A stretch of DNA of 64,000 nucleotides, from NCBI GenBank assembly GCA_018240585.1, contig JAFEFM010000540.1, positions 5,198 to 69,197 on the forward strand, given 5' to 3'. Origin of the DNA: Pseudomonadota bacterium (GTDB lineage Bacteria > Pseudomonadota > Gammaproteobacteria > Burkholderiales > Rhodocyclaceae). How positions within the stretch are numbered: the first letter of the stretch is position 1; each line of letters begins with the position of its first letter. Below are positions 7,244 through 11,020 of the stretch, piece after piece. Position numbers and translations under genes: made by a program. Below the pieces are notes generated by a model. It was not told where the DNA came from. It ran no database searches and worked only from the letters and a program-made list of their open reading frames with translations.

Positions 7244-7500
7244 TTCGAGTCCATGCAGAGCATTGACGAACACGGCGGATATGCAGATCCGCTCACTGAG
7301 AGGCGAAAATTCTAGCACAGGGAAACGAACTGTCCGGCGCGCCACCGCAGACAAGGGCCTGCGGGTCCTGCATTCGCCGTCTGCGTTGCTGCGCTTCCGC
7401 CCGTCGGCAGCGAGGCAGGCGGGCGCCGTCAGCGACACGCCCGTGCGCGAGGAAGGCGCCGCCTGTGAGGGGTCCCCTGCTCTGGCCGTTGCCAGCGGTG

Positions 7501-7530
7501 ATTTGAATCAATTATATTGTTCCAAATATT
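7501..7530. promoter_or_regulatory. AT-rich dyad element in the surE / antiporter divergent control region
   Basis: ATTTGAATCAATTATATTGTTCCAAAT: ATTTG...CAAAT outer arms and CAAT..ATTG inner arms in otherwise GC-rich DNA. Confidence 0.4.
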
Positions 7531-7623
7531 CCGAGCTCGACGCAGCTCGTATTTCCCAGCCGTCCCGCGCAAGGCGGGCGCGTGACGATCCTTCGACCGT
7601 CACCCCTAACTGGAACGCTTCCG

Positions 7624-8823
7624 ATGGATTTTCCTATCTGGCCCGACTGGCCACCCCGCTTCGGCGCACTCCTGCCGGTCGGCCTTGCGCTGATCCTGAC
7701 CGCCCTGGCTGGCGAGGCCAGCCGGCGCGCCAGGCTCCCGACGGTCAGCGGCTATGCAGCCGCCGGACTGCTGCTCGGTCCCGTGCTGCTCGGTTCCTTC
7801 GATGCGTCGGAACTGGCTGGCTATCGCAGCGCACTCGAGCTGTGCCTGGCGCTGCTGCTGTTCGAGCTGGGCATGCGCCTCGACGTGCGCTGGTTCAGCG
7901 CCAACCCGTGGCTGTTCGCGACCAGCCTGGCGGAGATCGCCCTCAGCTTCCTGCTGACGTTCTCCGCCCTGCAGGCAATCAGCGGCGACACGATGCTCGC
8001 CCTGGCCATCGCGGCGATATCGGTCGGCACTTCGCCGGTGGTCGTGATGCGGGTCGTGGCCGAACAGCGGGCCAGCGGACAGGTGACCGATCGCCTGCTG
8101 GCGCTGTGCGCCCTCAACGCAGCGGCATCGGTCGTGCTTCTCAAGCTCGTGATGGGCGGGTTGCATGGCGTCCATGGCGGCGGAGGCATCGCGCTGCTGC
8201 ATCCGCTCTATCTGCTCGTCGGCTCCATCGTGGGCGGCATGCTGATCGCCGCCGCATATGCCGGATTGCGCAAGATCGTCGGCGCCGAATCCGAGCAGGG
8301 CCCTGCAGCGACCATCGCCCTTCTGGTCGTGGCCGTTGCGGTGCTGCACGCACTCAGGCTGCCGCTCGCACTCGCGCCATTGATCGGCGGCGCACTGGTG
8401 AGATGGCTCGACCCCCGGCCCCATCTGTGGGCTTCACAGTTCGGCAGCGTGACCAGCACGCTGGTGATCGTCGCCTTCATCCTGGCTGGCGCGACTGCGA
8501 ACCTGAGCCACCTGGCTCTGGGCGCAGGCCTTGCCCTCGTGGCGATCGCCGCACGGGCCCTCGGCAAACTCGGCGGCACGCTCGCCTTCGGCGACCGCAG
8601 CGGTCTGGATCGGTCCAGGAGTTTCGCGCTCGGCATGGCGCTGATGCCGCTTTCCGTGCTGGCCCTGCTCCAGGTCGAGGACGTCCGCCAGGTTTTTCCG
8701 GAATTCGGCGAGCGCATTCAGGCAGTCGTGCTCGCAATGACGGCGGTACTGGGCGCGCTCGGCGCCATCGCCACGCGCTGGGCGCTGTTGCACAGCCGTG
8801 AAAGTCGTATCGGAGACAGGTGA
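7624..8823 (+). CDS. Cation:proton antiporter (CPA)-fold membrane protein, no RCK/KTN domain
   Basis: About 12-13 hydrophobic segments; [15 protein letters not shown] and ARALGK match CPA-family motifs. Start MDFPIW chosen at 7624. Confidence 0.8.
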
Positions 8824-9950
8824 TGAGACTCGAATCGTTCGCGCCATCACGCGCATTGTCCATCGGCGTGGAACTGGAGCTGCAACTGGTCGGCACCCAT
8901 GATTACGATCTCGCGCCGGTGGCGGAGGACTTGCTGCGCGCGTTGTCACGCACCGAACTGCAGGGTGACATCAAACCCGAGATGACCTGCTCCATGATCG
9001 AGCTGTCGACCGGGGTCTGCGACCAGTACGAGACGATCTGCGCGCAGCTCGAATCCCTGCGCGACGCGCTCGGGTCCGCAGCGCGCCGGCTCAATGTGGG
9101 CATCTGCGGTGGCGGCACCCACGCCTTCCAGAACTGGGGCGAGAGGCGCATCTTCGACGGCCCCCGTTTCCAGTATCTGTCCGACCTCTATGGCTACCTC
9201 GCCAAGCAGTTCACCGTGTTCGGGCAGCACGTGCATGTCGGCTGCCCCAGCCCCGACATCGCGCTCTACCTGCTGCATGGGCTTTCACGCTATATCCCGC
9301 ATCTGATCGCGCTGTCCGCCTCCTCGCCATTCGTCCAGGGACAGGACACCGGGTTCGAATCCGCGCGGCTCAACTCCGTACTCGCCTTCCCGCTTTCCGG
9401 CCGCGCACCCTTCGTCGACAACTGGCGTGATTTCGAGCGCTACTTCGAGAAGATGGCCAGCACCGGCGTGGTCAGCAGCATGAAGGATTTCTACTGGGAC
9501 ATCCGCCCCAAGCCCGAGTACGGGACGATCGAGATCCGCGTCATGGATACCCCGCTGACGGTGCAGCGGGCAGCCGCCGTGGCCGCCTACATCCAGACCC
9601 TGGCACGCTATCTGATGATCGAGCGGCCGCTGCGGCTCGCCGAGGACGATTACCTCGTCTACACCTTCAATCGTTTTCAGGCCTGCCGCTTCGGCTACCA
9701 AGGCGTCTATGTGCACCCGGAAACGCACGAGCACACGCCGATCGCCGAAGCGATCGCATCGAGCATCGAATGCATCGAACAGCACGCCATCGAGCTCGGC
9801 ACCGACGCAGTGCTCGCCGGTCTGAGGGCCGACGCGCTCGCCGGCCGCAACGACGCCCGCTGGCTGCGCGCGCAGCATGAGGACGGGGCGCCGCTGGCCG
9901 AAGTGGTGATGGCCCAATGCACGCGCTGGGCGCAGGGAGGCGCGATGTGA
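8823..9950 (+). CDS. ybdK: YbdK/GCS2-family carboxylate-amine (glutamate--cysteine-type) ligase
   Basis: [45 protein letters not shown]; TGATG overlap with the upstream stop. Confidence 0.88.
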
Positions 9951-10729
9951 GCCGCCAGCCGCTGCGCATCGGCCTGTCGGCCCGCCTGATGCACAGCCCG
10001 CCGGCCGAACTCGGCTTTCCGGGCAAGACGCTGCAGTACCTCGAGCAATCGATGGCGCACTGGATCATGTCCCACGGTGCGCTGGCGCTCATGGTCCCGA
10101 CCATCGGCGAGCACCTGGGATTGCGGCGCGCGCAGATCTCGGTGCGCGACTATGTCAGCAGCCTCGACGGGCTGGTGCTGCAGGGCGGCGCGGACGTGAG
10201 CCCGTCGACTTACCACGAGGAGGCCCTGCGGCCGGACTGGACCGGCGATCGCGTGCGCGACCTCTACGAGATCGAACTGCTTTGGGAGTTTGTCATCCAG
10301 GGCAAGCCCGTTCTGGGCGTCTGCCGCGGGGCGCAACTCATCAATGTGGCCTGTGGCGGCACGCTGTGGCAGGACATCACGGAATATGTGCCAGGAGCGA
10401 TCGCACACCGCAGCGAGGACCTCTACGATCGACACTACCACTGCGTCGACTTCGCGCCCGGCAGCCGGCTTGCGAATCTGTACCCGGAGCGCACGGGCGG
10501 CCGCGTCAACAGCATCCACCATCAGGCTGTGCGCGAACTTGGCGCCGACCTGCAGGTCGAGGCCCGCTCGGCGGGTGACGGCGTGATCGAGGCGATCCGC
10601 TGGCGGGGCTCCAGCTACCTCTTCGGCTGCCAGTGGCATCCCGAGTTCCAGCGCGGAGACGGCGATCTGCTGGACGGCAGCCCCATCATGCAGGACTTCC
10701 TCGAGGCTGCGGAACACGCACGCGCGTGA
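9947..10729 (+). CDS. Gamma-glutamyl-gamma-aminobutyrate hydrolase-like (peptidase C26, class I GATase)
   Basis: GGAGG RBS then GTG overlapping the ybdK stop; [15 protein letters not shown] (Cys), NSIHHQ, QWHPE (His-Glu). Confidence 0.88.
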
Positions 10730-10857: not shown

Positions 10858-10942
10858 GCCCCCAATCTGGCCCCCAAACCAAAATCGGCGGAGGAAAAGC
10901 AAAAAGGCCAGTCTTTCGACTGGCCTAAGTGCTTGATTCTAT
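10858..10942 (-). other. att-arm-like scar downstream of tRNA-Pro (IHF site, hairpin, direct repeats)
   Basis: AATCAAGCACTTA on the minus strand at 10926-10938 matches WATCAANNNNTTR; GGCCAGTC-TTTC-GACTGGCC hairpin with T-tract on minus; GCCCCCAA repeated at 10858 and 10870. Confidence 0.5.

Positions 10943-11020
<78 letters not shown>

Follow-up and report, generated by a model that had tools for sequence, protein, structure and literature searches.

The stretch of DNA considered here (the window) is a 64,000-nucleotide segment from a Pseudomonadota bacterium of the Rhodocyclaceae (NCBI GenBank assembly GCA_018240585.1, contig JAFEFM010000540.1, positions 5,198 to 69,197 of the forward strand). 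It contains a gene for a membrane protein of the cation/proton antiporter (CPA) superfamily, called the carrier below, in which the ion-binding aspartate of the fifth transmembrane helix (TM5) is missing, followed immediately by ybdK, the gene for a carboxylate-amine ligase, and by a third gene for a protein of the Peptidase C26 type. The features on which the argument turns are given here by window position, with residue numbers throughout referring to the 399-residue protein begun at the ATG at 7624:

7624..8823, forward strand: membrane protein of the CPA2 family with a NapA-type fold and no TM5 Asp, 399 amino acids (PF00999, NapA profile match, AlphaFold2 model, Foldseek)
7933..7935, forward strand: E104 in TM3, a near-invariant acidic residue and, from covariation, the probable salt-bridge partner of K315
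8026..8037, forward strand: G135-T136-S137-P138, the unwound break of TM4 (DSSP break in the model; aligns with NapA A125-T126-S127)
8116..8121, forward strand: N165-A166 (AAC-GCA) in the middle of TM5, CPA motif positions 6 and 7, which are DD, ND or QD in canonical antiporters
8554..8568, forward strand: R311...K315 in TM10 (ARALGK), K315 being CPA motif position 8
8647..8658, forward strand: P342-L343-S344-V345, the break of TM11 (DSSP break; aligns with NapA P330-R331-G332-E333)
8823..9950, forward strand: ybdK, a GCS2 carboxylate-amine ligase (NF010040, 588 bits; PF04107; E 6e-103 to E. coli YbdK, 1R8G)
9947..10729, forward strand: Peptidase C26/class-I glutamine amidotransferase (GATase)-like protein (PF07722, 179 bits), an accessory gene

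The open reading frame that encloses the carrier extends from 7582 to 8823 on the forward strand and would specify 413 residues if translation began at the GTG at 7582, but the ATG at 7624 is the likely start, because the resulting 399 residues match the 399-402 residues of the closest homologues. The sole Pfam match of the carrier is PF00999 (91.6 bits against a cut-off of 26.2, residues 39-362 of the 413-residue frame), and the domain scan accordingly finds no KTN/RCK domain. None of the NCBIfam models scores above its cut-off; the CPA2 model TIGR00932 reaches 34 bits, where 238 are required. The low TIGR00932 score, taken together with the PF00999 match, therefore indicates a divergent PF00999/CPA2 member for which there is no specific NCBIfam model. 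Close homologues carry the database names “cation:proton antiporter”, “sodium:proton antiporter” and “Kef-type K+ transport”, and the ESM Atlas returns generic “cation:proton antiporter” clusters only.

The structural relationship requires a profile for its detection, since a phmmer search of the PDB with the single carrier sequence finds no antiporter. A profile built from 48 homologues matches NapA of Thermus thermophilus (CPA2; PDB 4BWZ, 5BZ2) at E 2e-12 and PaNhaP at 1.5e-5, and hhalign to E. coli NhaA yields no alignment. The AlphaFold2 model, computed on the family alignment, is predicted with high scores (predicted local distance difference test 92.6, predicted TM-score 0.91) and contains 13 helices, two of which are broken according to DSSP, at 134-137 (G135-T136-S137) and at 340-344 (M341-P342-L343-S344). 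The structures ranked highest by Foldseek are NapA, NHA2, PaNhaP, SOS1 and KefC, with TM-scores of 0.69-0.75 to NapA and NHA2, so that NapA is the best match in fold as well as in profile; the 13 helices, the Thr-Ser break in TM4 and the TM10 Lys (K305 in NapA, K315 here) are common to the two. By descent the carrier thus belongs to PF00999 (Na_H_Exchanger/CPA2): the family model matches, and the predicted fold is the NapA type of 13 transmembrane helices with crossing discontinuous TM4 and TM11.

The absence of the aspartate can be asserted only if the register of TM5 is secure. The original prediction had placed the dipeptide Asn-Ala at 8116-8121, one helix after the motif GTSPVVV (8026-8046), and both its coordinates and its sequence are confirmed; the basic ARALGK motif, found at 8551-8568, is retained as it had claimed. 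It had also called for a check of the register by alignment or modelling, and three profile alignments now supply one. Against NapA the family profile pairs N165 with D156, A166 with D157, T136-S137 with T126-S127 and K315 with K305; against PaNhaP it pairs N165 with N158 and A166 with D159; and against a Kef-type paralogue from the same genome, whose motif is FQD, it pairs N165 with the Gln and A166 with the Asp. The carrier is non-acidic at the ion-site Asp in all three. These three alignments form the basis of the register, hhalign to a single KefC sequence being unreliable in TM5. Residues 163-172 include no Asp or Glu at all, and no plausible shift of the alignment therefore brings the aspartate back. 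The comparisons confirm that Ala166 replaces the ion-binding Asp of TM5 in the predicted protein; of the residues that mark a cation/proton antiporter, the polar residue at position 6 (N165) and the basic residue at position 8 (K315) are present, and the Asp or Glu at position 7 is not.

The loss extends far beyond the window. HMMER, run over a complete set of 1.84 billion cluster representatives, identified 1331 proteins with E <= 1e-30; the 150 highest-ranking all reach E <= 1e-73. The family also has metagenomic and more remote members, among them sequences from Myxococcaceae and mine drainage. Residue counts were taken from 137 full-length representatives clustered at 50% identity. At position 7 these have Asn in 60 cases, Thr in 32, Ser in 19, Cys in 13, Ala in 7, Val in 3 and Gly in 3, with neither Asp nor Glu in any, and at position 6 Asn occurs in 110. 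Judged from these sequences, the loss is a family trait of a widely conserved clade, which moreover proves to be monophyletic (see below), and not an error; sequencing error and pseudogene formation were considered as its cause and rejected, given the intact reading frame and the clade-wide occurrence. The statement that this Asp is essential or nearly universal in the superfamily agrees with the literature: in the survey by Masrati et al. 2018 (PMC6181914), 94% of CPAs carry an Asp at position 7, which is named there as a superfamily fingerprint, and the D156N substitution in KefC abolishes the K+ density (PMC11150392).

The architecture around the missing residue has been preserved. At the two helix breaks, S137 (in 125), P138 (in 128) and P342 (in 134) are each retained by over 90% of the 137 representatives, and it is therefore argued that the substrate site at the helix crossover is still functional and under selection. 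The TM11 break nevertheless lacks the Arg and the Glu of NapA, R331 being replaced by Leu343 and E333 by Val345, and the family consensus at this point is P-[ML]-[SA]-[GAS].

Three charged residues remain in the core. R311 is Arg in all 136 representatives in which it was read, K315 is Lys in 116 of the 137 (Lys or Arg in 118), and E104 is Glu or Asp in 119; R311 and E104 are additional in comparison with NapA. K315 and E104 are not independent of one another. Both the acid and the base are present in 115 representatives, both are absent in 15 and only 7 are mixed, and on the tree the pair has been lost jointly about seven times independently (Fisher p 7e-14, without correction for phylogeny). 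In two ybdK-linked proteins, L035 (genome G069) and L045 (G486), E104 and K315 are replaced by Ser and Met and by Gln and Thr, respectively, and R311 is kept. E104 aligns with NapA G94, one helical turn from NapA P98, which is the equivalent of NHA2 E214; in NHA2 this Glu forms a structural salt bridge with the TM11 Arg (PMC8850199). The joint losses make the Glu appear structural, and the pattern suggests that E104 and K315 form a salt bridge of the same kind as the Glu214-Arg431 bridge of NHA2 (SLC9B2), one whose two halves can be replaced jointly; in NHA2 itself, a Na+(Li+)/H+ exchanger, both aspartates are present, unlike in the carrier. When the Asp-less clade is compared with its Asp-bearing relatives, acidic residues are seen to have been lost at alignment positions 143, 197, 274 and 295 and basic residues gained at 85, 157 and 260, these positions being alignment columns that are not mapped to the cavity. 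The mean net charge is +3.8 in the clade and +0.1 in the relatives, a crude comparison in that the relatives are 15 heterogeneous proteins.

It is here that the possibility of a relocated ion site must be weighed, in which the carrier would still be a cation/proton exchanger and the E104-K315 pair would take over the role of the D156-K305 pair of NapA. Such a role would account for the conservation of the acid at E104 and its covariation with K315; the site lies about one helical turn from the NHA2 E214 position, which contacts a TM10 basic residue (PMC8850199), and in NhaA and NapA protons can be carried by an acid paired with a Lys (PMC6181914). A sole carrier of ions or protons would not, however, be expected to be dispensable, and about 11% of the representatives, including the ybdK-linked L035 and L045, have neutral pairs; the equivalent Glu-Arg pair of NHA2 is structural (PMC8850199), and acidic residues have disappeared from the four further positions as well. 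A relocated site is accordingly considered unlikely. Another acidic residue at the ion site was the finding that the original prediction had named as fatal to it, and this objection is partly touched by E104, which lies near the site, although the covariation with K315 fits a structural bridge better.

The second body of evidence comes from the gene that follows. The ATG of ybdK overlaps the TGA stop codon of the carrier by one base (TGATG), and from its family matches the product is a genuine YbdK. Linkage was counted among the members of a genome collection, first in a sample of 151 genomes of the Burkholderiales (in the sense of GTDB), which are related to one another, so that the counts are not independent. 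The carrier family is represented in 67 of these genomes and YbdK in 56, and the carrier is present in 52 of the 56; in all 52 genomes with both genes it directly precedes ybdK in the same orientation, at an intergenic distance of -4 to 83 nt. The sequences of 43 ybdK-linked loci were fetched, namely 30 of 30 in a first set and 13 more from a phylum-wide sample. All 43 lack the Asp, with TM5 motifs of N-[T/S/C/A/G/N], S-[T/A/S] and, once, D-C, which answers the question raised by the original prediction of whether the ybdK-linked orthologues share the loss: every one read does, out of the 52 linked genomes of the order sample and the loci of the phylum sample. The window and all 43 loci combine a non-acidic position 7, the TM10 Arg and a ybdK gene directly downstream on the same strand. 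In the phylum sample the nearest relatives without ybdK linkage carry D-D or, once, N-D, and genomes with a YbdK of the enterobacterial type (42-45% identical) have no such carrier. At L035 the tblastn match to YbdK spans only 289 residues in the locus, and in another genome (G130:C7:58088-62492) the CPA genes are in tandem, with a second family member directly upstream of the carrier-ybdK pair.

The third gene is a less constant companion. The best NCBIfam match of its product, gamma-glutamyl-GABA hydrolase, falls under the cut-off, and its start is ambiguous between an ATG at 9917, which would give a 34-nt overlap with ybdK, and a GTG at 9947, which would share nothing with ybdK beyond its stop codon (GTGA); in the longer form, the Pfam similarity sets in at residue 33. 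A C26 gene stands beside the pair, sometimes upstream of it, in about 8 of the 43 short loci and in 4 of 21 long ones. Because it accompanies only about 20% of the loci, the conserved unit consists of two genes and is not a three-gene cassette; what had been described as a cassette thus holds for the carrier and ybdK and fails for the hydrolase.

The order in which these features arose was examined on a maximum-likelihood tree of 80 sequences, rooted on distant members with an A-D motif, in which the support of deep nodes is modest (0.26-0.80). The betaproteobacterial Asp-less carriers form one clade (support 0.80), outside which the D-D proteins fall, and every early branch inside the clade is ybdK-linked. 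Nested among the linked members is an unlinked subclade (support 1.00) marked by SSSP in TM4, N-N in TM5 and PMAG-x-AIG in TM11, whose members (L078-L092, L034, L036, L039) never adjoin ybdK and have no conserved neighbours of any kind; in one genome (G057, L034) the paralogue adjoins a canonical NapA-like D-D gene. This N-N paralogue is the family member found in 15 Burkholderiales genomes without YbdK, and it occurs also as a second copy in genomes that bear the pair. The pattern indicates that the Asp was lost once in the linked clade, at or before the origin of the pairing with ybdK, and that the paralogue later became independent. A separate group with N-N or D-N in place of D-D, some of whose members have C-terminal EIIA or Usp domains, is a CPA2 lineage outside the linked clade (P0074; P0079, fused to an EIIA-2 domain of the phosphotransferase system; P0080, fused to Usp). 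Given this lineage, the sequences suggest that the ion-binding Asp may have been lost more than once across CPA2.

These data bear on the proposal that the carrier no longer transports anything and serves YbdK as a “pseudo-transporter”, that is, as a membrane anchor, sensor or regulator. The loss of the catalytic Asp would be understandable in such a protein, and translational coupling often marks proteins that interact physically. Against this stand the retention of the broken-helix motifs and crossover residues at S137, P138 and P342 and the persistence of the unlinked paralogue clade in genomes without YbdK. A search of the longer proteins for fusions of the carrier to YbdK or to another soluble domain found none, which is weak evidence from a weak search, and the longer family representatives yielded no additional Pfam domains. 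Of the alternatives weighed here, a protein without transport activity is regarded as the most improbable.

The charge of the site and the behaviour of the paralogue could also be explained by a carrier of small inorganic anions such as chloride, bicarbonate or phosphate, for which the link to ybdK would reflect a need to balance charge or pH. The charge arguments used below in favour of an organic anion apply to it equally. Helix N-termini whose dipoles are not neutralised are the classic site for a small anion, and the alignment, from which the geometry is deduced, places such termini at the crossover, where the TM11 Glu is absent; the N-N paralogues that lack both ybdK and conserved neighbours would likewise suit a general ion carrier. 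A general ion carrier would, however, offer no ready reason for the strict co-translation with a ligase, in 52 of 52 genomes, and this alternative, too, is given a low probability, on a level with that of the relocated site.

The wider neighbourhood suggests a further possibility. Four of 21 long loci (L058, L066, L071, L074) have MscS-family mechanosensitive channel genes at most a few genes away from the pair, one of these genes including a cyclic-nucleotide-binding domain, and in E. coli ybdK also lies near the MscS-family gene ybdG; these neighbours form a possible link to osmotic stress. Genes for PntAB, CitMHS and TRAP proteins are sporadic neighbours. The carrier might then be a uniporter or channel-like pathway for a cation (K+, or NH4+ or an amine) without proton coupling, with carbonyl, hydroxyl and amide groups as ligands and a part in osmotic or K+-glutamate homeostasis. 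K+ sites without carboxylates do exist in channels, and C26/PuuD-like partners would suggest an amine as the substrate. The passage of cations is disfavoured, on the other hand, by the invariant Arg and the Lys in the core and by the lost acidic residues, and KefC D156N no longer binds K+ (PMC11150392). A cation uniporter is thus held to be slightly less probable than either of the two alternatives just graded alike.

Comparison with characterized systems helps to define what the carrier is not. With KefC and KefB (PDB 8BXG) it shares the CPA2 membrane domain, an amide at position 6 (Gln in Kef, Asn here) and the Lys of TM10/11, and the gating of Kef by glutathione provides a thematic tie to gamma-glutamyl chemistry. 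Unlike Kef, however, it has no KTN/RCK domain, no KefF/G partner, no counterpart of the conserved D156 and no TM12 Glu (E337), and it does not fall within the Kef group. Its own genome encodes a separate canonical Kef-type K+/H+ exchanger, the paralogue used above to fix the register (L093, G000:C416:862-1947, an open frame of 683 residues with FQD in TM5 and G-G-E-F in TM11), together with two further PF00999 fragments at contig ends (L094, L096). In the part of the survey by Masrati et al. 2018 consulted (PMC6181914), 6% of CPAs are without the position-7 Asp, a “Class III” G-E group is defined and an “Uncharacterized” ninth CPA2 clade is recognized; the G-E group, the sole exception treated in that text, keeps a carboxylate, unlike the carrier, and neither an N-x clade nor a linkage to YbdK is described in that text. 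A literature search found no publication on the carrier clade or on the carrier-YbdK pair.

Functional analogies must be sought elsewhere. In the bile-acid symporters of the ASBT/BASS group and the PIN auxin exporters a crossover of two broken helices binds an organic anion that bears a carboxylate, and these are proposed as analogues of the carrier in function only: they belong to different Pfam families without detectable sequence similarity to it, and its top fold matches are all cation/proton antiporters. The crystal structure of CitS has a different fold, although it belongs to the same Pfam clan, and ASBT and PIN are therefore the better analogies. At the level of pathway, the three genes of the window resemble the Puu/Pau system, in which a transporter (PuuP, an importer), an ATP-dependent gamma-glutamyl ligase (PuuA) and a C26 hydrolase (PuuD) act together. 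The ligase of the window, however, is of the GCS2/YbdK type where PuuA is like glutamine synthetase, its transporter has the CPA fold and not that of the APC family, oxidase and dehydrogenase genes are missing, and the C26 gene is inconstant.

Taken together, the evidence makes it quite probable that the carrier is not a classical cation/proton exchanger. As to what it is instead, the reading that we prefer, at somewhat less than an even chance, is that of an organic-carboxylate carrier tied to the chemistry of YbdK; the solute and the direction of transport are extrapolated from sequence and gene context. The original prediction, which had suggested an organic solute and possibly a gamma-glutamyl conjugate, is thus supported in part, namely in the loss of the Asp and its spread across the clade, while its solute remains a conjecture. 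The protein would be an elevator-type secondary carrier descended from CPA2 cation/proton antiporters that has kept the NapA fold with both broken helices and given up the carboxylates that bind cations and protons. The charge of the core would thereby have shifted from net negative, with D156, D157 and E333 set against K305 and R331 in NapA, to net positive, with E104 set against R311 and K315. The ligands of the substrate site would be N165 and the small neutral residue beside it in TM5, T136 and S137 at the TM4 break and S344 at the TM11 break, all at a crossover whose helix N-termini are not neutralised, in the company of the invariant R311 and of a K315 neutralised internally by E104. R311 perhaps fills the dipole-neutralising role of NapA R331 and has been left uncompensated by the departure of the aspartates. 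A site of this kind would be unsuited to Na+, K+ or H+ and suited to an anion or zwitterion bearing a carboxylate.

The partnership with YbdK would supply the identity of the solute. Enzymes of the YbdK type couple an amine to a carboxylate that they have activated, in most cases the one at the gamma position of glutamate. Considered together with the strict translational coupling, this chemistry makes it the most economical reading that the carrier supplies a substrate of YbdK or exports its product. In this obligate operon partnership with an ATP-dependent ligase, the carrier would take L-glutamate, the amine or amino acid to be joined to it, or the gamma-glutamyl amide so formed across the inner membrane, co-translation would couple transport to ligation stoichiometrically, and the optional C26 amidohydrolase would recycle or process the amide. 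The Kef paralogue with its Q-D motif, by which K+/H+ exchange in this genome is covered separately, counts in support of the organic-carboxylate reading.

Several considerations weigh against that reading. R311 is shared with the D-D relatives in the tree set, and it is therefore an inherited structural residue and does not represent the gain of a new anion-binding group. E104, an acidic residue near the site, might in principle serve as a cation ligand. The variability of position 7, which ranges over Asn, Thr, Ser, Cys, Ala, Val and Gly, may mean that this residue does not touch any substrate. The presence of the N-N paralogue in genomes without YbdK implies that the function of the fold is not strictly dependent on YbdK; this tips the balance slightly towards a common metabolite, for example glutamate or some other amino acid, and away from a product specific to YbdK. 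Finally, the only activity of YbdK known to us is a weak one in vitro, reportedly observed by Lehmann and colleagues in 2004.

The remaining features of the locus concern its boundaries. A candidate promoter resembling the sigma-70 type precedes the carrier:

7489..7518, forward strand: TTGCCA-18-TATATT, detected by consensus scan alone (10 of 12 positions agree), some 100 nt before the start of the carrier

No Rfam element was found in the carrier leader, and visual inspection of 46 upstream regions revealed no leader motif shared across the families. Just downstream of the C26 gene, a tRNA gene on the reverse strand (10946-11019, Rfam 57.9 bits) bounds the three-gene unit, and a terminator-like hairpin (10905-10926) lies with it on the strand opposite the C26 gene.

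The Asp in the middle of TM5 has been treated as a universal fingerprint of the CPA superfamily. That a large, conserved clade, found in roughly one in three of the sampled Burkholderiales genomes, retains the elevator fold without it implies that a different substrate can be served by the same scaffold. This clade constitutes a natural test of which residues define the coupling of cations to protons, and the annotations of its members as antiporters or Kef proteins are probably wrong throughout. It is put forward tentatively, and with less assurance than the organic-carboxylate reading itself, that this is the first PF00999 lineage to have turned from cation/proton exchange to the transport of organic carboxylates (glutamate, another amino acid or a gamma-glutamyl amide), and that its pairing with YbdK represents an unrecognised module of transport plus ligation. 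Since the pairing with ybdK is nearly obligate, the substrate of the carrier probably reveals what YbdK ligates, and the module, if real, would finally give YbdK a physiological role.

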